Position numbers and translations under genes: made by a program. The notes under the pieces are model-generated. The model saw only the letters and a program-made list of their open reading frames with translations, was not told the DNA's origin and did no database searches. Shown here in pieces: positions 31,804-57,170 of a stretch of 64,000 nucleotides of DNA (position 1 is its first letter; each line of letters begins with the position of its first letter). Source of the DNA: an uncultured delta proteobacterium (GTDB lineage: Bacteria; Desulfobacterota; Syntrophia; Syntrophales; Smithellaceae); the NCBI GenBank assembly GCA_963753975.1, contig CAVWEH010000005.1, positions 128,001 to 192,000 of the forward strand. The letters run 5' to 3'.

Positions 31804-34800
31804 TTAGAGGATTATATTACGCGATTCTTCCGATGCGCATTCGTGCTTTCCGGAATAGACTGTCCCGCTCCAACCATCTATGCACACGAAATCTCCGGCG
31901 GTGATTTTGCAGCTATCCACTGACGCAAAACCGGCGGTTTCGTAAACTTTGAGTTTACTGAATCCGACAACGCCGACTTTGTTGAGTTGAGGAATTGTAA
32001 CGGCGGCGTGCGAAGTACCTCCCCCTCTTGCCGTCAAGAGCCCATCGACCTGCAAAAGCACGCCGACATCATCAGGAACGGTATCGCGACGAATCAAAAT
32101 GAGCGGTGTTTTCGGCTCGGCTGAGCGAAAATGCTTAATGTCCGCTTCAGAGTAAACCGCCCTGCCGCAAAGAGCGCCACCGCTTACCCCTATACCTGTT
32201 CCCAACACGGAAGACTGTAAAACCTCGGTATCTATAAAGCGCTTCAATCTTTTTGCCGTTATTTGATCCATATCCCGTGTTTGCAGGATATATAACCTGT
32301 CCCTGCTTGTACCTTCAAAGGTAAATTCTATTTCCTGATGGTTAAGGCCTTTCTCATAAATCAAAATTTCAGAAATTTTTATCAGTTCATCGTAAATCTC
32401 CGGAAATTTAGCTTCCAGAGATATTTCCATGTCTTTGCGTTCTGCTAAACGCTGTTTTTCCGAAATAGGATAAGTTTCCACCAGGCCGGAAACAATATCG
32501 TCCCCCTGAACACCAAATATAAAATCTCCATAAATGGTCACCGCGGATGACGAGCTTTTAGGTTCGCGGGTAAAAATAACGCCCGATCCCGAGTGCTCAT
32601 TGAGATTTCCAAAAACCATCGTCTGGACAATTACCGCTGTTCCCCATTTATCCGAAAGATGCATCTGGTGACGATAAATTTTCGCCTGCTCGGAATACCA
32701 GGAGTCAAAAACTTTGAGAATAGCGTGCCGTAACTGTTCCAGGGGATCGTCTTTAAGCACGATACCACTATTTAATATGCCTTTCTTATACGTAAGAGCT
32801 ATCTGTTTCATTTGACCGGGAGAAAACCGCAGCTTTCTTTCCACGCCGTATTTTTGCTTGAATCCGTCTATTATCGCATCGAAAAAATCCCGGTTTAATC
32901 CCTGATACATACCCCATGTCTGCAAAAACCGCCGATATGAATCCCATGCCGCCCATTGAAAATCTTCTTTAGCGCTGAGATTTTCGGCAATCGTTTCGTT
33001 AATCCCAACATTTAAAAAAGAATTCATCATACCCGGCAGAGAAACAGTGGCACCGCTTCTTACCGATAACAGCAGAGGGTTGTGCGGATCACCGAATTTG
33101 CGCCCGGTCATTTTCTCTAATGTGGATATTTCTCTATTTATCCTGGCGGCAAGATCGTTAAATATATACTTATAGCCGATAACGGCATCATAACCTCTGA
33201 ATACTTCCGTGGTGATGATAAATCCGGGGGGCACATGAAAACCAAAAGATACCAGCTCTTTGAGGAAATATCCCTTGTTCCCGAGAAGGATCTGATTATC
33301 AACCCGTTTATTCTTCTTATAGAAGGAGGAAACAGCAAGTTCCGGATTATAGGACATGACCAGTTTAAGAATCTGTTTATTGTCTTTAAATCTTTCCAGC
33401 TCCTCATTAAGGGTATTGATGACCGCGTTAACGAAATTGTCCAACACTTGAAGACCGAAGGCGGAGGATATTATCCCTCTGATGAAATTTTCCGATTGTT
33501 GGTACACGGTTTCTTCATGATTTTGAATTTCGTCTTTTGTATCGGCCTCAGTTTTTTGCCGGGTAATTTGCCCGATAATAACAGGCAGGTTGGAGCTGTG
33601 AGCGTCTATGTAATAATCACGGATAATATCCTGTATGCCCTTGGCGATAAAGCGGAAGATATCGACATATTGTTCGATAGAAAACTGCTTGATGGCCAAG
33701 GCGCTGGTTACGTATTTGACTTTGGCCACCAAACCTTCCGTAGAAATTCCTTCCAACTCCAGAGCGCTGATATAGAGCCACAAATAGGCGTGAATCTTGA
33801 CGATGGTGCGTTTAGTAATGAATTTGAGGTTTAGCGACCGGGCCAGCTCCTCTAGAAGCATCGTGGCCAGGCTCTCCAAGCGGAGCGAAAGGCCGAGAGC
33901 GTCAAATTTCTCTTCATTGTAGGTCCCATACATCGACGGTATTCCTGCCGCAATGTGCCTTTTGTAATATATGTTTTCAAAAGGTTGGGTTTTTTGGCCA
34001 GAGAGAATCTTTTCCTTCAATACGGATAAAAATTTCATTATGATTGTAAGACTTTTGTAGTTATTTCTTGCGCCCAGAGCGCGTTTCAGCGCCATGATCT
34101 CGGATTTCTGGAAAGGATGAACCGATTCCAGGTCTTTCAATAAATCGACATACAGGGGAAAATATTTTTTATAAAGAAGCTGATAAATGCGGATCATGAG
34201 CCGGGTGCGCTCTTTATCTCTTTTATTAATGCCTTTGACATTATTGATCTCTTTTTGAACCTTTGCTTGATCCCATTCGATCAATTTCCGTGGATTATCC
34301 TGAGCCGGCGAAAGCAAATATTTAAAGGCTTTGTGCATTCCGTCAAAATATTCCCCGGAGTTTACTACTTGTTCAAACACCTCGTCAGGAAGATGTTTGC
34401 GGACAAATTCCTTTTCGCCGGAAAACCAGTATTGGAAAATGTTTTCCATAAATTCCACAAGGAGGCTGTTACTCTCTACGTGGGATTGTTTGCGCAGAAA
34501 GTTGATCAGTTTATCGTTACGGTAAGAAAGTTCGTCCACTTCGGTGGAAATGTCCCGCAATTCGCCTTCGGCGCCGATTTCGCTGAAATAAACAGGGAAT
34601 ATTCTGAGGAGCTGTTTTATCAGATTGTATGCCGAAGCTATATCGGAATTGAGCAGGGCGGAAATATCCTTTTGCAGGAGGTCTGTATCCCGCACAAAAA
34701 TTCCCCCGATATTTAGATTGATAATCAGGGCGGAAACGAGCTTCTTTGTCCAGCGGGGTTTCATCGCGATAATCTCGAGCCATGATCTTATGTTGACAAT

Positions 34801-36042
34801 ATGCGTCGGATTGACCTGCACCTGCCATTCGGTCGTCGTCCCTTTAACTTCCGGATATTGAAAACCGTAAGAAATAAGTTCGTCAATAAATGTATCCGCA
34901 AGGGAGTGAGAGTTTTGATCGAATACTTCCTTAGCCGTCGTCGTGATGCAATCGATAATGGAGCCCCGGTATTCATATTGCGATCTGCTCTTTTTCAGAA
35001 AGCCGAATACCTTGCGCACAAAATCGTTGAGGTTTTCCTTTTTTTCCTGCTGAAAGACTAATTTCAGACAACGGTTTATTTCTCGCAGAGCGCTGCCGTG
35101 GATATCGGAAAGACCGGGTACGCCCATGATACTGAACAGAAAGTCCAGTTTCACCAGATACTGGCGTCCCTGATAAGCCGGGAATTTCTCCAATTGATCG
35201 GCAACTAAAAAATATCCGTTTACTATTTGAAAGTAATCCGGCAAATCAAGGTAATCCTTCGTTTGCAGAGCGCCTTTCTTTTGTCTGTCCGGATGAAGAG
35301 TTTCCATCTTCGTAAGCAGCATCTGAATATGCCGGTGGCTCAGGGGCTCAATAATTTGCCTGTAAGCATCAGCCGCTTCCCCGGTTTCTCCCCCGCCTTT
35401 CGTATACCATCCGGAAGGATCAGGCTGGGTAAGCCAGAATTGGTATGTAATTTTGAACATCTTATAGAGTAAAAGATCGAATATTTCAGCGTGAAGAGGC
35501 GTGTCATTTTCTAGCAGGAACTTGACGGTTCTTTTGAGGTAAGCCGAGCATTTCTTGAATATGGCTGCATCCTCATCCGATATTCTGATCAGCGATTCTA
35601 TGATCTCGGAAAACAGGGCTAGGTTTCTGGAAATAAATTCGTTGCTTTGAGAAATTATCGTGTCAATATAATCGAAAAGATAGTGTATCGCGCTGTCTCT
35701 GATCTCATCGCTTGAAGAAAATTTAATAACATCGAAGTATATCTTAAGTAATATGGAAAGGGCGGATAGTCCGTCTTTATGCCTGTTGTACTCGTAGAAA
35801 TCGCCGATGGAAAGGGATTTCAGCTCCTGGAGAACATATTCCCAGTTAACGAAAGGATGGTTTAACTCTGTCAGCAGTTCCCGTGTTTTTTTCTGCAGGC
35901 CGTAATGCTCTTCTACAACTTTAAGCAGAGGGGCATACTGTTTGGGTATTTCTATGGCTACTGCCGTCCTCTCCAAATTCACCTTAAGAGCGGACGAAAC
36001 CCAGCCTTCATTTTTTTCAATGGTGCTATTTTTCGCCTTCAT
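31804..36042 (-). CDS. PPDK-like dikinase: large N-terminal domain, ATP-grasp and phospho-His domain, no pyruvate barrel
   Basis: LGNKG, VPPGFIITT, LLSVRSGA, QTMVFGN, GVQGDDIVSG, ILQTR and GGGTSHAAV; ends right after the His domain. Confidence 0.82.
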   Translation of the reverse strand: MKAKNSTIEKNEGWVSSALKVNLERTAVAIEIPKQYAPLLKVVEEHYGLQKKTRELLTELNHPFVNWEYVLQELKSLSIGDFYEYNRHKDGLSALSILLKIYFDVIKFSSSDEIRDSAIHYLFDYIDTIISQSNEFISRNLALFSEIIESLIRISDEDAAIFKKCSAYLKRTVKFLLENDTPLHAEIFDLLLYKMFKITYQFWLTQPDPSGWYTKGGGETGEAADAYRQIIEPLSHRHIQMLLTKMETLHPDRQKKGALQTKDYLDLPDYFQIVNGYFLVADQLEKFPAYQGRQYLVKLDFLFSIMGVPGLSDIHGSALREINRCLKLVFQQEKKENLNDFVRKVFGFLKKSRSQYEYRGSIIDCITTTAKEVFDQNSHSLADTFIDELISYGFQYPEVKGTTTEWQVQVNPTHIVNIRSWLEIIAMKPRWTKKLVSALIINLNIGGIFVRDTDLLQKDISALLNSDIASAYNLIKQLLRIFPVYFSEIGAEGELRDISTEVDELSYRNDKLINFLRKQSHVESNSLLVEFMENIFQYWFSGEKEFVRKHLPDEVFEQVVNSGEYFDGMHKAFKYLLSPAQDNPRKLIEWDQAKVQKEINNVKGINKRDKERTRLMIRIYQLLYKKYFPLYVDLLKDLESVHPFQKSEIMALKRALGARNNYKSLTIIMKFLSVLKEKILSGQKTQPFENIYYKRHIAAGIPSMYGTYNEEKFDALGLSLRLESLATMLLEELARSLNLKFITKRTIVKIHAYLWLYISALELEGISTEGLVAKVKYVTSALAIKQFSIEQYVDIFRFIAKGIQDIIRDYYIDAHSSNLPVIIGQITRQKTEADTKDEIQNHEETVYQQSENFIRGIISSAFGLQVLDNFVNAVINTLNEELERFKDNKQILKLVMSYNPELAVSSFYKKNKRVDNQILLGNKGYFLKELVSFGFHVPPGFIITTEVFRGYDAVIGYKYIFNDLAARINREISTLEKMTGRKFGDPHNPLLLSVRSGATVSLPGMMNSFLNVGINETIAENLSAKEDFQWAAWDSYRRFLQTWGMYQGLNRDFFDAIIDGFKQKYGVERKLRFSPGQMKQIALTYKKGILNSGIVLKDDPLEQLRHAILKVFDSWYSEQAKIYRHQMHLSDKWGTAVIVQTMVFGNLNEHSGSGVIFTREPKSSSSAVTIYGDFIFGVQGDDIVSGLVETYPISEKQRLAERKDMEISLEAKFPEIYDELIKISEILIYEKGLNHQEIEFTFEGTSRDRLYILQTRDMDQITAKRLKRFIDTEVLQSSVLGTGIGVSGGALCGRAVYSEADIKHFRSAEPKTPLILIRRDTVPDDVGVLLQVDGLLTARGGGTSHAAVTIPQLNKVGVVGFSKLKVYETAGFASVDSCKITAGDFVCIDGWSGTVYSGKHECASEESRNIIL

Positions 36043-36232: not shown

Positions 36233-36268
36233 TTGACAAATGCAAATATAGTTGTATCATACAACTAT
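36233..36268 (+). promoter_or_regulatory. Promoter and palindromic MarR operator of the hgc operon
   Basis: TTGACA(36233)-16 bp-TATCAT(36255); perfect inverted repeat ATAGTTGTAT-C-ATACAACTAT (36248-36268) covers the -10 and the start codon. Confidence 0.75.
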
Positions 36269-36746
36269 GACCAAAGAGATAAATGTAAATTATACTCAAT
36301 TAATGGAATTATTCACCGGCCTTTCCCAGGTGACCCGCTGCTGCCGTCAGGATGAGGCTTTTTGCGAAGACGTGACGTTTCACCAGTTTATGATATTGGA
36401 CGCAGTGGCAAAGCACAAAGAACTGAATATGTCCGACTTGCACAAGCATCTTTCCGTCGAAAAAAGTACGACCACCAGACTAGTCACCCCCTTGATTAAA
36501 AAAGGTCTTTTACAACGTGATCAGGCCCCACACGATTCCCGAGCAGTGACGCTTACTTTGACAAAGGAAGGCAGAGATGTCCACAAAAAAGTCTCGTTGT
36601 GTCTGAGTGATTTTTTCCGCAAGGTTATGGGCAATATTCCGGAGAAAAAAGCGGATGTTGTTTTGGAATCCGTTAAGACTTTTATTACGGCTATAAAAAA
36701 TTATGCACGAGAATGCAGTTGCTGCAAATCACGCGGGTTAGGTTAG
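36267..36746 (+). CDS. Cys-rich MarR family transcriptional regulator
   Basis: wHTH KSTTTRLV..L.KKG and DSRAVTLTLT.EG; Cys motifs RCCRQDEAFC and ECSCC. Confidence 0.88.
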   Translation: MTKEINVNYTQLMELFTGLSQVTRCCRQDEAFCEDVTFHQFMILDAVAKHKELNMSDLHKHLSVEKSTTTRLVTPLIKKGLLQRDQAPHDSRAVTLTLTKEGRDVHKKVSLCLSDFFRKVMGNIPEKKADVVLESVKTFITAIKNYARECSCCKSRGLG

Positions 36747-36750
36747 CGCT

Positions 36751-37905
36751 ATGGACAAAATTGAAAATAGTTCCCGAGATATGATTACACTGCCGGTAAT
36801 TATGCCGGAGTCAACATGTTGTGTCACCGCACAAACGGCTCAGTATCCTCTTCCTCGCTTGAATCAAGCTTTTATCACCGGTTCTATCTCCACAGCTGCA
36901 GGCAACCTGCCCAGAGTATCTTCAACCTTGAGTTGGCAGGATCATTGGAGAAGCATTAAAGCCCGCTGGGGAGTCGACAGAATGGATTATGCTGTTGACC
37001 CCGGTCTTTATGCTCTTGGTAATCCCGATAGCAATTCCCCTGTTTTAGTTACCGCCAATTACAAAATGAGTTTTGACCGCTTGCGGGAAGCTCTGCCGGG
37101 CAGAAATACATGGATTCTGGTGCTGGACACAAAAGGAATAAACGTCTGGTGCGCCGCGGGAAAAGGTACATTCGGTACGGACGAATTAATCAAAAAAATA
37201 GAATCAAGCAGACTGAAAGATATTGTCAGCCACAGAAAATTAATTATTCCTCAGTTGGGAGCGCCCGGAGTAGCCGCTCACAAAATAAAACAGGTCTCCG
37301 GATTTAAAGTCTATTACGGTCCGATACGGGCAGCCGACGTGCCAGCTTATCTTGATGCCGGACTTATTGCCAGCTCTGAAATGCGGATAATGACATTCCC
37401 CTTAAGAGAAAGAGTCGTCCTGATTCCCATCGAGCTTATAGAAACGATAAAACCTTTTTTAATCATCGCGCCCATTTTGTTTTTACTTGGCGGTATAGGA
37501 GGCCACTCGGGCTTCTGGGTAAACACATTGAATTATGGTTTGTTTGCCGTTTTAGCATTTTTAAGCGCTATTTTGGGAGGAGTTGTTATAAATCCACTTC
37601 TTCTGCCTTATCTTCCCGGGCGCGCGTTTTCCATAAAAGGTTTTTCCATTGGTGTAGTTATCGCCCTTATTCTTCTTTACTTACGCGATATTAATTTACA
37701 GGCATGGCCTGGCAGAATCGAGGCTTTGGCCTGGCTAATGATAATTCCAGCCATATCTGCATACCTGGCAATGAATTTTACCGGAGCCTCAACTTACACT
37801 TCTCTCTCCGGTGTCAAGAAAGAAATGCGCTGGGCATTGCCGCTGGAAATAGCCGCGAGTGCTTGCGGCCTCTTAATATGGATAACATCACGCATAATTG
37901 CCTAG
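36751..37905 (+). CDS. hgcA: Mercury methylation corrinoid protein HgcA
   Basis: Diagnostic cap helix NVWCAAGKG, TANYKMSFD and PQLGAPGV; C-terminal TMs with MNFTGASTYTS.SGVKKE. Confidence 0.97.
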   Translation: MDKIENSSRDMITLPVIMPESTCCVTAQTAQYPLPRLNQAFITGSISTAAGNLPRVSSTLSWQDHWRSIKARWGVDRMDYAVDPGLYALGNPDSNSPVLVTANYKMSFDRLREALPGRNTWILVLDTKGINVWCAAGKGTFGTDELIKKIESSRLKDIVSHRKLIIPQLGAPGVAAHKIKQVSGFKVYYGPIRAADVPAYLDAGLIASSEMRIMTFPLRERVVLIPIELIETIKPFLIIAPILFLLGGIGGHSGFWVNTLNYGLFAVLAFLSAILGGVVINPLLLPYLPGRAFSIKGFSIGVVIALILLYLRDINLQAWPGRIEALAWLMIIPAISAYLAMNFTGASTYTSLSGVKKEMRWALPLEIAASACGLLIWITSRIIA

Positions 37906-37915
37906 GAATTTAAAA

Positions 37916-38246
37916 ATGAAAAATTCGCTTTACCTGAAAAATGTCGTTACCCTGAAGCTTAATGAAGATAAATGTACCGGCTGTGGCATGTGTCTGGACT
38001 GTTTGTCCTCATAAAGTTTTTAAAATGAATGAAAAGCACGTGATCATTCAAAACCGAGACGCCTGTATGGAATGCGGCGCGTGCAGTAAAAATTGTCCGG
38101 CTGATGCTATTTTCGTCCAATCCGGTGTCGGCTGTGCTGCCGCCGTTATCAATTCCCTGCTGGGGCGTAGCAGCGGTGAGTGTTGCTGCGGCACTGAACC
38201 CGTGGGCGCGACAACCGATAAACGCAGCGGATGTTGTTGCGGATAA
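37916..38246 (+). CDS. hgcB: Mercury methylation ferredoxin HgcB, +1 frameshift at about 37995-38000
   Basis: ATG 37916 gives YLKNVVTLKLNEDKCTGCGMC, then a frame change to VCPH...CMECGACSKNCP...SGVGCAAA...CCC. Confidence 0.92.
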
Positions 38247-38279
38247 AATATTTCATGAAATCCTGAATTAAGTTCTCTT

Positions 38280-38999
38280 ATGCAAAAATATTGGGGATAC
38301 GTAATAATTTGGCTTTCGTATATTTTAAGCGGCTCATCGTTGATCGCCTTTGCTGTTTTTCTTTATGCCGGGCGTTTAGATTTGTCCAATCTAGGATTAA
38401 ATGAACATCAGGCGCTTTTGTTTAATGCCGGACTTTCGCTCGCCTTTTTCATTCAGCACAGTGGAATGGTTCGTCGATCATTCCGACAATTTCTATTCCG
38501 GTTTTCGCCGGAAGCATATAACGGCGCCATCTATTCAATCACTTCCGGAATTTTTCTGTTCTTAGTGGTCATTTTCTGGCAGGGAACATCTGTTTTGTTC
38601 GAAGCCGAAGGTATAACCCGCTTCCTCTTGCGTGTAGTTTTTATTTTTTCTATTGCCGGATTTGTCTGGGGAATCAAGGCGCTGGGCTTTTTTGATCCTT
38701 TTGGTATAGAAGCGGTATTAAATCACTGGCCGGACAGAAACCCTCAGCCGGCAGCTTTCACGGTGCGAGGCCCTTACCGCTGGGCACGGCATCCCTTATA
38801 TTTATTTGTATTGGTGATGATTTGGTCATGTCCGCAACTGACTGCGGACAGATTGCTTTTTAATATTTTCTGGTCGGCATGGATTTTTTTCGGCACCCTG
38901 CTGGAAGAACGCGATTTGGTCGAACAATTCGGTGATGCCTATCGAGACTATCAGCAGAAGGTGCCAATGCTTTTTCCGTTTAAATTCATCAAGAAATAA
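38280..38999 (+). CDS. Membrane SAM-dependent methyltransferase (ICMT/NnrU/MddA-like)
   Basis: FFIQHSGMVR, GPYRWARHPLY, EERDL and YRDYQQKVPM motifs; several TMs. Confidence 0.78.
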   Translation: MQKYWGYVIIWLSYILSGSSLIAFAVFLYAGRLDLSNLGLNEHQALLFNAGLSLAFFIQHSGMVRRSFRQFLFRFSPEAYNGAIYSITSGIFLFLVVIFWQGTSVLFEAEGITRFLLRVVFIFSIAGFVWGIKALGFFDPFGIEAVLNHWPDRNPQPAAFTVRGPYRWARHPLYLFVLVMIWSCPQLTADRLLFNIFWSAWIFFGTLLEERDLVEQFGDAYRDYQQKVPMLFPFKFIKK

Positions 39000-39008
39000 T
39001 CGCCGAAC

Positions 39009-39284
39009 TCAAATGAATGAAACATTATGAGTCACGGATGTAACCAGAAAACAGCGTTCGATGTTCGACTTTGTATCTACCGGCACAACGAAGAATCCCG
39101 GGTGGTTCGGATGGTGGCCATGAGCCGTGCCGACCATTAATTCCCCGTCTTTGAAGACTACCTTGAGCTCGGTCGTACGTAATTCCAACGCTTTGCTGCC
39201 GGGCGCGACATTTGCAGGAAGCAGATGAAAGAGATCCTTGTCGGGGAAGAAGTCGTTAGCGATACACTTCATCATTGACACCAT
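39009..39284 (-). pseudogene. Truncated DUF6982-like hypothetical protein
   Basis: Condensed remnant VVFKDGE.MVG...PGFFVVPVD.KSNIERCF; looks internally deleted. Confidence 0.4.
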
Positions 39285-54996: not shown

Positions 54997-56091
54997 ATGC
55001 GATCAATGAAAGTCAATCTCGATAAAAAGTCTTTGTCCTCCTATGAAATACGCATAGGTAACGGCATTGCCGATAGGATGGCTCTGCTTATTGCTAAGAA
55101 CCACAAAGCGGGACTTTATGTGCTGATAACGGATGATTGTGTCGGTAAAATCCACGGACGAAAGCTTTTCGCCAGCTTAAAAGACGTAGGACTGAATGCG
55201 GATTCGATCGACTTTCCCGCGGGCGAGGCTTCCAAAAACATTAATACTATTTTGGATATTGTGGAGGCGTTGTTGAAACGGGGAGCCGACAGGGAAACTC
55301 TTTTAATTGCTCTAGGCGGCGGAGTTGTGGGCGACATGGTCGGTTTCGTCGCTTCCATTTTTATGCGTTCCATTCCTTATATTCAGATTCCGACAACTCT
55401 CGTAGCGCAGGTGGACAGCAGTATCGGCGGAAAAACCGCTATCGATCTGCCTTATGGTAAAAATCTACTGGGGACGTTTTACCAGCCCTGCGCTGTATTT
55501 ACGGATTTAAATTTTTTGGATACACTGCCGGAAAAAGAATTCAACAACGGGCTTGCGGAAATTATCAAATACGGTGCCATCGAAGATGAAAAAATGTTTC
55601 ATGCCCTGGAGGACAATATGGAAGCGGTAAAACAAAAAGACGCGACGCTTTTGTTAAAGCTTGTGGAAAATTGTTGCCGCATCAAAAAATCAATTGTCGA
55701 GATAGACGAAAAAGAGCAAGGCCTGCGGCGCATTCTTAATTTCGGCCATACACTGGGGCATGCGTTGGAAGCCCTTTCCAAATATAAAGTAACGCATGGC
55801 GAGGGAATTGCTCTGGGGATGATCGCGGCAGCGCGCATTTCCGAAAAAATGGGCTATCTGGAAAACGGGGAAACCAAGCGCATCGAAGGACTTATAAACG
55901 GTGTGGGCCTGCCCGTAAACATTTCTAAATCCGTTTCTCCAGAAAATATAATTTCTCAGTTGCGTATGGATAAGAAAAAAAAGGGAGATATCGTTCATTT
56001 TGTTTTGTTAAAGAAAATAGGAATGCCGTTTGTCAACGGAGCTATAGAGGCAAGTTTGATCAGCGAAGTAATTGAGGAGATGAAAAAATGA
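54997..56091 (+). CDS. aroB: 3-dehydroquinate synthase
   Basis: GGGVVGD, PTTLVAQVDSSIGGK and LNFGHT motifs. Confidence 0.96.
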   Translation: MRSMKVNLDKKSLSSYEIRIGNGIADRMALLIAKNHKAGLYVLITDDCVGKIHGRKLFASLKDVGLNADSIDFPAGEASKNINTILDIVEALLKRGADRETLLIALGGGVVGDMVGFVASIFMRSIPYIQIPTTLVAQVDSSIGGKTAIDLPYGKNLLGTFYQPCAVFTDLNFLDTLPEKEFNNGLAEIIKYGAIEDEKMFHALEDNMEAVKQKDATLLLKLVENCCRIKKSIVEIDEKEQGLRRILNFGHTLGHALEALSKYKVTHGEGIALGMIAAARISEKMGYLENGETKRIEGLINGVGLPVNISKSVSPENIISQLRMDKKKKGDIVHFVLLKKIGMPFVNGAIEASLISEVIEEMKK

Positions 56092-57170
56092 AGCTGGGGC
56101 GCTTGGAAAATTTACGAAAAAACATAAAAGAAAAAGACCGGGAGATTATTCGTTTGTTAAATGAACGGGCGCAAATATCCGTCCAGATAGGTAGCGTTAA
56201 AGACGAAGGCGGCCTCGATGTATATGATCCTGCTCAGGAAGCAAGAGTTCACGACTATCTGCAGGAGCTTAATTCCGGCCCTCTGCCGCGGGATGCCGTA
56301 ACGGCCATTTTCCGCGAAATTATTTCCGCTTCGCGCAGTTTGCAAAAACCGACGGCCATTGCTTTTTTTGGTGCGGAAGCATCTTTTACGCATTTAGCGG
56401 CACGTTTGCACTTTGGTAATTCCAGCCGTTATTTTCCTCAGCCGAGGATTGATCGTGTATTTGATGAAGTGGAAAAAGGTTCCATAGATTGGGGAGTTGT
56501 TCCCGTAGAAAATTCCCTGGAAGGATCGGTAAACATTACTCTTGACCGGTTGATTACGACTGCGCTCAATATCAGGGCCGAGATTTTTTTGCGAATCAGC
56601 CAGTGCCTTATTTCTTCGGCTAAAAGTATAACGGATATTAAGAAAATTTACTCGCATCCGCACGCCTTACCCCAGTGCCAGGTCTGGCTCAGAACAAATC
56701 TGCCTAACTGCATATTGGGCGAAGCGGAAAGCACAGCCGCGGCGGCACAGATGGTGCGGGGGAAAAAGAACGAAGCGGCGATTGGCAGTTCCCTTGCCGC
56801 TCAGATCTACGGCTTGAATTTGCTGGCCGAAGGCATCGAAGATAACTCCTCCAATATGACGCGCTTTTTGGTTATAGGCAGAGGAGAAAGCGACACAACG
56901 GGTGATGACAAAACTTCATTGATTTTCGCGACACCTCATTCGCCCGGTTCGCTTCACCGCGCTTTGTCTTCCTTCGCCCACCGCCGGATTAATTTGACCA
57001 AAATAGAATCGCATCCGGTAAAAGAGAAATTGTGGGAATACCTTTTTTTTGTAGATATGCTTGGCCACGTAAAAGACAAGCAGATAAAGAGCTGTTTACA
57101 GGAGCTGAAAGAAAAAACAACTTTTCTGAAGATACTGGGTTCCTACCCGAAAGCGGAAGGCAGAATATGA
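56088..57170 (+). CDS. pheA: Chorismate mutase/prephenate dehydratase (P-protein)
   Basis: AroQ N-terminus; PVENS.EG, TRF and ACT-domain NLTKIES. Confidence 0.95.
   Translation: MKLGRLENLRKNIKEKDREIIRLLNERAQISVQIGSVKDEGGLDVYDPAQEARVHDYLQELNSGPLPRDAVTAIFREIISASRSLQKPTAIAFFGAEASFTHLAARLHFGNSSRYFPQPRIDRVFDEVEKGSIDWGVVPVENSLEGSVNITLDRLITTALNIRAEIFLRISQCLISSAKSITDIKKIYSHPHALPQCQVWLRTNLPNCILGEAESTAAAAQMVRGKKNEAAIGSSLAAQIYGLNLLAEGIEDNSSNMTRFLVIGRGESDTTGDDKTSLIFATPHSPGSLHRALSSFAHRRINLTKIESHPVKEKLWEYLFFVDMLGHVKDKQIKSCLQELKEKTTFLKILGSYPKAEGRI

Follow-up and report, generated by a model that had tools for sequence, protein, structure and literature searches.

A predicted leaderless marR-hgcAB operon with an MddA-like methyltransferase gene in an uncultured Smithellaceae bacterium

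Which role the mercury methylation genes hgcA and hgcB play for the bacteria that carry them, and which trigger turns them on, are open questions in mercury biogeochemistry. According to the reports available on the subject, neither the presence of the genes nor even the level of their transcripts is a good predictor of methylmercury production (PMC10349881; 10.1101/2022.10.17.512643). Here, these questions are taken up at one locus in a 64,000-nucleotide (nt) stretch of DNA (“the window”; positions 128,001 to 192,000 of the forward strand of contig CAVWEH010000005.1, assembly GCA_963753975.1) from an uncultured delta proteobacterium of the Smithellaceae, the genome of which comprises 2,429,453 bases on 6 contigs and is 95.1% complete. 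Between positions 36233 and 38999 of the window, four open reading frames (ORFs) of the plus strand follow one another in the same orientation—a gene for a MarR-family regulator (marR), hgcA, hgcB, and a gene for a membrane methyltransferase resembling MddA—and are separated by gaps of only 4, 10 and 33 base pairs (bp). A first-pass annotation of the window had described this arrangement, and reading of the ORFs bears it out; the start coordinate given there, 36233, is the first base of a −35 box, TTGACA.

We propose, with a probability of roughly 0.6, that marR-hgcA-hgcB-mddA-like forms a leaderless operon under repression by the cysteine-rich MarR that it encodes, and that this repressor is likely released from a palindromic DNA site by arsenite-like metalloids. 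In such a switch, a MarR dimer seated on the palindrome would block RNA polymerase at the leaderless promoter. A soft metalloid, e.g., As(III) or Sb(III), would be bound by the thiolates of Cys25/26, Cys33, Cys112 and a C-terminal cysteine cluster, and the metalloid-bound MarR would leave the DNA, as published for the arsenic-responsive repressor MarR_ars, upon which all four genes would be transcribed as one unit. HgcAB would then perform corrinoid-dependent methyl transfer, while the MddA-like membrane enzyme, with S-adenosylmethionine (SAM), would methylate a small thiol, sulfide or a metalloid-thiol species of the same stress.

A regulator-headed hgcAB operon as such is already known, and MarR in front of hgcA has been noted in print for two isolates; what is new here are the recurrent, phylogenetically separate links of MddA-like genes to hgcAB and to arsM, together with a broken hgcB. 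The locus offers a defined regulator, a 15-bp DNA site and a predicted transcription start, and these are common to about 150 species-level genomes and many metagenome contigs; hence, the inducing signal should be findable by simple binding and reporter assays. Furthermore, a sister clade of the regulator heads arsM, and MddA-like genes recur with hgcAB, arsM and three kinds of metalloid-type regulators. Mercury methylation is thereby connected, in a testable manner, with the chemistry of arsenic and volatile sulfur, a connection that is not in print within the literature searches made.

Linkage to hgcA, operator and promoter

The cysteine-rich MarR subfamily and its palindrome are found almost exclusively in front of hgcAB. 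Of the 41 genomes from this genus, family and order (including G000, the genome of the window), 30 contain hgcA, and a MarR gene lies directly 5' of hgcA in 17 of the 19 relatives' hgcA loci that were read. In an evenly sampled set of 401 genomes of the phylum, 125 of them with hgcA, a threshold of E ≤ 1e-15 yielded 14 MarR matches, 12 of which are encoded directly upstream of hgcA, co-oriented with it, in six families. These 12 comprise every match at E ≤ 3.6e-24, and the two weakest matches (28–32% identity) are not linked to hgcA. The analysis was extended to 149 relatives, one genome per species, and among the best 80 of these (loci L051–L130), hgcA is the next gene after marR in 78. The exceptions are L124, a 3.1-kb contig with only an hgcB fragment after marR, and L086, a shortened second copy. 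The latter (L086:5986-6231) is accompanied by the palindrome, resides on the same 2.78-Mb contig as L071 and consists of an 82-amino-acid (aa) ORF followed by a 1,406-aa gene; it may be what remains of an hgcAB cluster that was lost.

In metagenomes, a scan that started from distant MarR members provided 80 loci, of which 72 were usable (at least 400 nt downstream of marR); with GC contents of 0.43–0.71, hgcA follows marR in 66 of these. The survey of hgcA neighbourhoods for MarR which the first-pass annotation had suggested as a check has, thus, found the arrangement in other genomes, and because it recurs there, the four-gene arrangement is far from chance.

When the upstream regions are aligned on the MarR start, two elements stand out as conserved from otherwise diverged DNA, namely TTGACA and, 12–14 nt downstream of it, the palindrome GTTGTAT-N-ATACAAC (36251–36265 in the window). 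With at most one mismatch, the latter precedes marR in all 78 usable loci out of L051–L130 (57 exact), with 0 further matches in 785,667 nt; exact TTGACA at a spacing of 16 or 18 nt is found in 77 of the 78. Among the 80 metagenome loci, 78 have the palindrome upstream of marR, and the other two begin at a contig edge. In the genome of the window, the pattern GTTGTANNNTACAAC has a single match, as compared with 0 control matches.

In the window, TTGACA is followed at a distance of 16 nt by TATCAT, and this promoter, scoring 11 out of 12, is the best plus-strand site between 35900 and 39500. The −10 box (36255–36260) is contained within the palindrome and reads TATAAT in 24 of the 78 species loci. 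The 3' end of the palindrome is 1 nt ahead of the marR ATG, a spacing shared by 67 of the 78 loci. Transcription usually starts about 7 nt after the −10 box; since the A of the ATG lies 7 nt past it, a leaderless marR mRNA is predicted. Autorepressing MarR proteins classically have a palindrome that covers both the −10 box and the start, and we infer from the conservation of the site that it serves as the docking site of a MarR dimer. The promoter scan of the locus found no promoter-like site on the plus strand between the four genes, and terminator-like matches, fewer than in shuffled controls, are confined to two, one inside hgcA and one inside the fourth gene; the four genes are, hence, predicted to form one leaderless operon. 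Its features are compiled in Table 1.

Table 1. Predicted elements of the marR-hgcAB-mddA-like locus (window coordinates).
Feature	Position	Strand	Basis
−35 box TTGACA of the predicted operon promoter	36233..36238	+	promoter scan
15-bp palindrome GTTGTATCATACAAC, predicted MarR operator	36251..36265	unstranded	conservation and uniqueness; binding putative
marR, 159 aa	36267 (ATG) or 36252 (TTG)..36746	+	PF01047
hgcA, corrinoid membrane protein of mercury methylation, intact	36751..37905	+	NF040863
hgcB, 2x[4Fe-4S] ferredoxin of mercury methylation, split by a 1-nt insertion at 37999/38000	37916..38246	+	two-frame reading
MddA-like membrane methyltransferase, ICMT fold, 239 aa (designated ‘MddL’)	38280..38999	+	NF045656, fold match

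The MarR protein and its candidate inducer

The marR product matches the Pfam family MarR (PF01047) with 47.8 bits versus a cut-off of 24.6 and stays below the cut-off for ArsR/SmtB (15.8 bits). A sequence search of the PDB returned 43 solved MarR structures at E ≤ 1e-3, all of them weak matches, and searching 1.84 billion representatives with a MarR profile led to 51 clusters at E ≤ 1e-30 as well as many weaker matches with C-terminal CC tails; the names of the clusters to which distant representatives belong were uninformative. (The name ‘hgcR’ is already taken by another regulator.) The cysteines of the window protein occupy positions 25, 26, 33, 112, 150, 152 and 153. Among 84 distinct members of the subfamily, Cys33 is conserved in 84, Cys112 in 82, Cys26 in 77 and Cys25 in 73, and 80 members possess a cysteine within the last 25 residues.

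Regulators of other families are known from the same position. ArsR-like regulators co-transcribed with hgcAB are established, and in Pseudodesulfovibrio mercurii ND132 the regulator is reported to respond to arsenic and S-adenosylhomocysteine (10.1101/2022.10.17.512643). The arsR2-hgcA-hgcB locus of ND132 resembles the present one in that a gene for a small, cysteine-rich winged-helix repressor directly precedes hgcAB; it is described as co-transcribed and as linked to arsenic, with arsenic genes nearby in other genomes. Unlike in ND132, the regulator described here belongs to MarR and not to ArsR/SmtB, a 15-bp palindrome covers the −10 box, the start is predicted to be leaderless, and a fourth gene, for a membrane methyltransferase, is present. 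The AbrB family ‘HgcAB-associated protein’ HgcC (NF040962), encoded by an AbrB/PrlF-like gene upstream of hgcA mainly in archaea according to Zhang et al. 2023 (PMC10349881), is likewise a small DNA-binding protein encoded directly upstream of hgcAB and also occurs beside MddA-like genes, but is of a different fold family; the genome of the window, at the completeness given above, has 0 matches to it.

For Dethiobacter alkaliphilus and Geobacter daltonii, the same paper mentions a MarR gene ahead of hgcA, and the MarR sequences in its supplement also display N-terminal and C-terminal CC motifs (PMC10349881). Furthermore, McDaniel et al. 2020 (PMC7438021) describe 112 genomes in which hgcAB is preceded by a conserved ‘putative regulator’, report transcripts of it in Deltaproteobacteria and name a Smithella as the dominant hgcA expresser in bog samples; that regulator, whose protein family the text does not name, has the same position and might be the present MarR. 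Altogether, the inducible module envisaged in the first-pass annotation, with hgcAB under a cysteine-rich MarR and accompanied by a second methyltransferase, is favoured by comparative genomics, its MarR-hgcA part being already in print for the two isolates.

As to the signal, a published precedent is AdMarR_ars of Achromobacter deleyi As-55, described as an autoregulated repressor of arsV that is freed from DNA by As(III) or Sb(III) and depends on Cys36, Cys37 and Cys157 (Yu et al. 2021, bioRxiv 10.1101/2021.08.12.456183). The window protein shares with MarR_ars the family, an N-terminal cysteine pair together with C-terminal cysteines, and relatives among arsenic genes, and autoregulation is predicted for it as well. 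The three cysteines by which MarR_ars is defined have their counterparts in the pair C25/C26 and in C150/C152/C153, a likeness of cysteine pattern. While arsV, arsN and arsP are the reported targets of MarR_ars, the genes here are hgcAB and, in a sister clade, arsM. In the metagenome loci L156, L159 and L162, a MarR of the same family and a second copy of the palindrome are followed by arsM (NF008823, 339–352 bits; cut-off 263). In a midpoint-rooted FastTree phylogeny, these arsM-heading MarRs form a clade separate from the hgcA-linked ones. Among the six metagenome loci without hgcA, three have arsM and a fourth has another class-I methyltransferase. Within the hgcA-linked loci, genes for ACR3 arsenite pumps (TIGR00832, 453–454 bits) and for an AhpD-like protein come after hgcB in L071 and L095, and a class-I methyltransferase gene does so in L059 and L116.

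Because the arsM-heading sister clade of MarR shares the DNA site and because the cysteine pattern fits MarR_ars, induction by a metalloid is likely, and a trivalent metalloid is the best-supported inducer. Of the two options put forward initially, a metal(loid)- or a thiol-sensing MarR repressor, the sister arsM clade and the published MarR_ars would, thus, favour the former.

The MddA-like methyltransferase and its company

The fourth protein aligns over residues 11–233 with the model of MddA (NF045656) at E 3.4e-39 and 134.5 bits, the cut-off of this equivalog model being 270; the other hgc-linked types, introduced below, reach 56.0 and 115.3 bits. With Pfam, its scores are below the cut-offs for ICMT (20.6 versus 24), PEMT (20.4 versus 25) and NnrU (21.0 versus 24.7). 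A PDB sequence match at E 1.3e-4 is the ICMT of 4a2n (Ma-ICMT), with which the RHPxY motif and the EE..L...FG..Y..Y block align, and R170, H171, P172, Y174, E209, G218, Y221 and Y224 are invariant in 91 sequences. An AlphaFold2 (AF2) model computed from the alignment of these 91 sequences has a mean pLDDT (predicted local distance difference test) of 89.3 and replaces an earlier one from 13 close sequences (pLDDT 55.3). In VIA-align, the C-terminal half of the model superimposes on the ICMT structures 5vg9_A (Z 11.1, root-mean-square deviation (rmsd) 2.8, 121 aligned residues) and 4a2n_B (Z 10.2, rmsd 2.5, 120 aligned) as well as on 8xkv_G (Z 10.1); the related sterol/steroid reductases 4quv_B and 7c83_A give Z 11.8 and 8.8, and unrelated entries start from Z 7.0. 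Foldseek against the PDB found no match at E ≤ 0.001, the best values being 0.017–0.11.

Since the motif block aligns with 4a2n and is invariant in the 91 sequences, the protein is an intact membrane methyltransferase of the ICMT fold, presumably SAM-dependent, with MddA as the nearest family, without being an MddA equivalog. Of the initial label “ICMT/MddA-like”, the ICMT fold is, thus, supported by structure comparison and motifs, and equivalence with MddA fails at the cut-off. Like MddA as described in the literature (PMC11445057; PMC12904073), the protein aligns with the full length of the model, is a membrane protein of about 240 aa and carries the ICMT-type RHPxY / EE..FG..Y..Y block. 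Unlike MddA, which acts as an H2S/methanethiol S-methyltransferase, it scores below the equivalog cut-off and is linked to hgcAB, arsM, ArsR and HgcC-type genes and not to sulfur-gas genes.

In the genus, 12 further genomes have hgcA, and in all of them an orthologue of the fourth gene follows hgcB (52–86% identity; two of the genes look split). In other genera, this position is taken by a short type of about 205 aa, which has 33% identity and reaches 56 bits with the MddA model. Of the 78 species loci with MarR and hgcA, 12 have the long type after hgcB and 8 the short type, i.e., 20 of 78 have such a gene directly after hgcB; two more copies are within 2.6 kb, and some contigs end too early to tell. 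A third MddA-like type is located between hgcA and hgcB in G167, a genome of another family. In a tree of 49 proteins, three changes between the labels “linked” and “unlinked” were needed in all bootstrap trees; the genus clade (support 99/100) and the short-type clade (97/99) are distinct, and the G167 protein falls inside a clade of unlinked proteins (98/98). Hence, by their phylogeny the hgc-linked copies constitute three separate groups. A second methyltransferase next to hgcAB, for which the first-pass annotation had likewise proposed a survey, therefore recurs in three separate clades.

Further company of this methyltransferase was found at loci without hgcAB. In L035 (83–1744) and L038 (17–2196), genes for an ArsR, a Cys- or Met-rich small protein without Pfam family and a LiaF-like membrane protein precede the orthologue; in L037 (556–2211), the same cluster of small protein, LiaF-like protein and orthologue is seen with no ArsR in view, and in L138, an unlinked orthologue has an ArsR gene nearby. 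In L132 (1985–4159, minus strand) and L135 (2487–4638, plus strand), a gene for an HgcC-type regulator (NF040962, 115 bits versus a cut-off of 70), the orthologue and arsM (332–340 bits) are arranged head to tail, which looks like an hgcC-mddA-like-arsM operon; these two genomes belong to family f30 and have no hgcA in the phylum-wide hgcA search. A published case is a rice-paddy contig (supplement to Zhang et al. 2023, PMC10349881), on which an AbrB/PrlF-like gene is followed by hgcA, hgcB and a gene for a K21310 methanethiol S-methyltransferase, with all four facing forward. Taken together, as judged from gene order, MddA-like methyltransferases accompany hgcAB, arsM and all three kinds of regulators that head hgcAB (MarR, ArsR, HgcC). 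The main texts covered by our literature search contain no report of hgcAB with mddA or of hgcA with isoprenylcysteine, supplements, one of which contains the contig just mentioned, being outside that search. Likewise, no paper among the matches listed links MddA with selenide, tellurite, arsenite or methylmercury.

The split hgcB and competing explanations

HgcA is encoded by a single copy in the genome and matches NF040863 with 470.6 bits (cut-off 275) over profile positions 2–324 of 325. It contains GINVWCAAGKG, of which NVWCAAGK (residues 131–138) is invariant in 13 genus-level sequences; N(V/I)WCA(A/G)GK is the HgcA cap-helix motif with the corrinoid-ligating cysteine. In the N-terminal extension that precedes the profile match (residues 1–50; 36751–36900), T13–I17 (TLPVI) and C24 are genus-invariant and C23 is nearly so; this extension may constitute a further thiol site.

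For hgcB, the gene, the position and the orientation given in the first-pass annotation stand, and the single open frame does not. The first frame, from the ATG at 37916, reads MKNSLYLKNVVTLKLNEDKCTGCGMCLD and ends at a TAA (38012–38014) after 32 residues, while the remainder (VCPHKVF..., to 38246) continues in the next frame. At the break, the window has CTGGACTGTTTG, one base more than 12 of 12 aligned relatives; the extra base is non-homopolymeric (GA[C]TGTT in the window versus GATGTT in the relatives). The break falls inside the first CX2CX2CX3CP motif (CTGCGMCLD / VCPH), leaving no single frame for HgcB. The second cysteine motif and the C-terminal CCCG are present; by itself, the C-terminal piece reaches 86.3 bits with NF040864, short of the cut-off of 99. 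The relatives' hgcB ORFs are intact with lengths of 104–127 aa. Among public sequencing runs searched for the source reads, the best contained 0.09 of the words of the stretch, and no RNA run with the stretch was among those listed; related-strain contigs from the four best DNA runs are short and of about 85–95% identity, and one of them is without the extra base.

Programmed frameshifting was considered and rejected, as no slippery site is seen and the relatives are in frame. Genome-wide frameshift signatures from overlapping open frames amounted to 1,329 candidates and were too unspecific. A second and a third frameshift in the window, suggested by proteins of the genome record G013, were attributed to errors of that record or to antisense ORFs, and the pheA-like gene at 56076–57170 is intact. 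The G013 record itself (L236–L238, G013:C2:430000-490000) has 11 frame breaks in 7,721 aa relative to the window proteins, a count that fits its low completeness (73%), despite its 6 contigs. The split of hgcB is, hence, either an error of the record or a very recent loss of a working HgcB, with odds near even.

Several of these observations weigh against the proposed metalloid-released operon, and they have to be considered together with the explanations that they would favour. The frameshift in hgcB means that the operon may make no methylmercury in this strain, and it could mark the cluster as a freshly decaying remnant in which the insertion is real, HgcB is missing and mercury methylation has been lost, an explanation to which we give somewhat less than an even chance. 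The position of the insertion outside any homopolymer and the completeness of the genome speak for it, as does a comparison with the good-quality relative G011: when 23 of its proteins (6,637 aa) were placed on the window, hgcB was the sole split, and the reverse comparison gave none, so that the assembly is not riddled with insertions or deletions in this region. Decay is, however, at odds with the otherwise undamaged state of both hgcB halves, which keep all cysteine motifs, and with the intactness of marR, hgcA and the fourth gene; furthermore, hgcA, hgcB or the Mdd gene is similarly split once in other records with few, long contigs (L051, L061, L074, L075, L130), and G013 has the 11 splits given above. 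The fourth gene, for its part, might be a passenger, i.e., a housekeeping membrane methyltransferase for a lipid, prenylated or other membrane substrate with no functional tie to HgcAB. An MddA-like match occurs in 49 of the 401 phylum genomes and adjoins hgcA in only 4, leaving 45 with none beside hgcA; 58 of the 78 MarR-hgcAB loci lack such a gene directly after hgcB, and in genus g2 a close orthologue is found on a different contig. In addition, the scores below the MddA, Pfam ICMT and PEMT cut-offs leave the choice of substrate wide. Set against this are the three separate hgc-linked groups, one of them between hgcA and hgcB, the published rice-paddy case under a different regulator, the retention of the gene after hgcB across the genus, and the repeated placement of unlinked orthologues beside ArsR, HgcC-type regulators and arsM, which together make a mere passenger unlikely.

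The nature of the signal is open to a similar objection, since the N-terminal cysteine pair is variable (both residues are replaced in L018 and L020), and the invariant Cys33 and Cys112 are not among the residues defined for MarR_ars. Oxidant sensing is also known among cysteine-bearing MarR proteins, and the layout of an N-terminal plus a C-terminal cysteine is also that of two-cysteine OhrR. The protein could, accordingly, be a sensor of thiol oxidation or electrophiles of the two-cysteine OhrR/MosR type, in which Cys33, Cys112 or the C-terminal cysteines would become cross-linked under oxidants or disulfide stress, thereby freeing the operator. The near-complete conservation of Cys33 and Cys112, in place of the Cys36/37/157 triad of MarR_ars, and the presence of redox-sensing OhrR and SarZ among the weak PDB matches are in line with this idea, which we nevertheless regard as improbable: the sister MarR clade heads arsM via the same DNA site, ACR3 follows hgcB in two loci, and Yu et al. 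2021 (bioRxiv 10.1101/2021.08.12.456183) describe CC pairs at both ends as a typical feature of As(III) sites, those of ArsR being discussed in the ND132 preprint as well (10.1101/2022.10.17.512643). By the names of their relatives (Smithellaceae), these bacteria are strict anaerobes, a lifestyle with which oxidant sensing is still compatible. Release by metalloids, the preferred explanation, also has to accommodate that the genome search revealed no arsM above the cut-off and that the ACR3/ArsC cluster of this genome sits away from hgcAB. This cluster (G000:C4:252030-256022; L247) encodes a thioredoxin-like protein, a CcdA-like membrane protein, an ArsC-like protein of the low-molecular-weight protein tyrosine phosphatase type and ACR3 (441.8 bits), and no palindrome was found at it. 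Furthermore, hgcA of P. mercurii ND132 is reported not to be induced by mercury, and expression is said there not always to predict methylation (10.1101/2022.10.17.512643). A far-reaching extension of the metalloid switch would make HgcAB one arm of an arsenite-induced methylation regulon, in which the same MarR and operator switch either arsM or hgcAB. The native job of HgcAB would then be the methylation of thiol-bound arsenic or antimony, with mercury as a side reaction; capping of the thiol or sulfide ligand by the MddA-like enzyme (giving, e.g., methanethiolate complexes) would allow the methylated product to leave the membrane. We consider this extension improbable.

Beyond the operon, a gene for a 91-aa DUF6982 protein (39009–39284, minus strand) is convergent with the fourth gene at a distance of 9 bp, with no terminator-like hairpin between the two. 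The divergent neighbour on the other side (31804–36042, minus strand) encodes a 1,412-aa protein, in which only the last approximately 500 residues correspond to known domains, namely the nucleotide-binding and mobile ones of pyruvate phosphate dikinase; approximately 900 residues ahead of them are without family match. Finally, in several Smithellaceae loci, a gene for a glyceraldehyde-3-phosphate dehydrogenase (GAPDH)-like protein of about 423 aa is located about 300 nt after hgcB (L100:8318-9586, L105, L110, L129, L049:6607-7884 and L046:2507-3778); its scores, 291.5 bits with TIGR01534 and 157 bits with the model for ArsJ-associated GAPDH, are both below the respective cut-offs.

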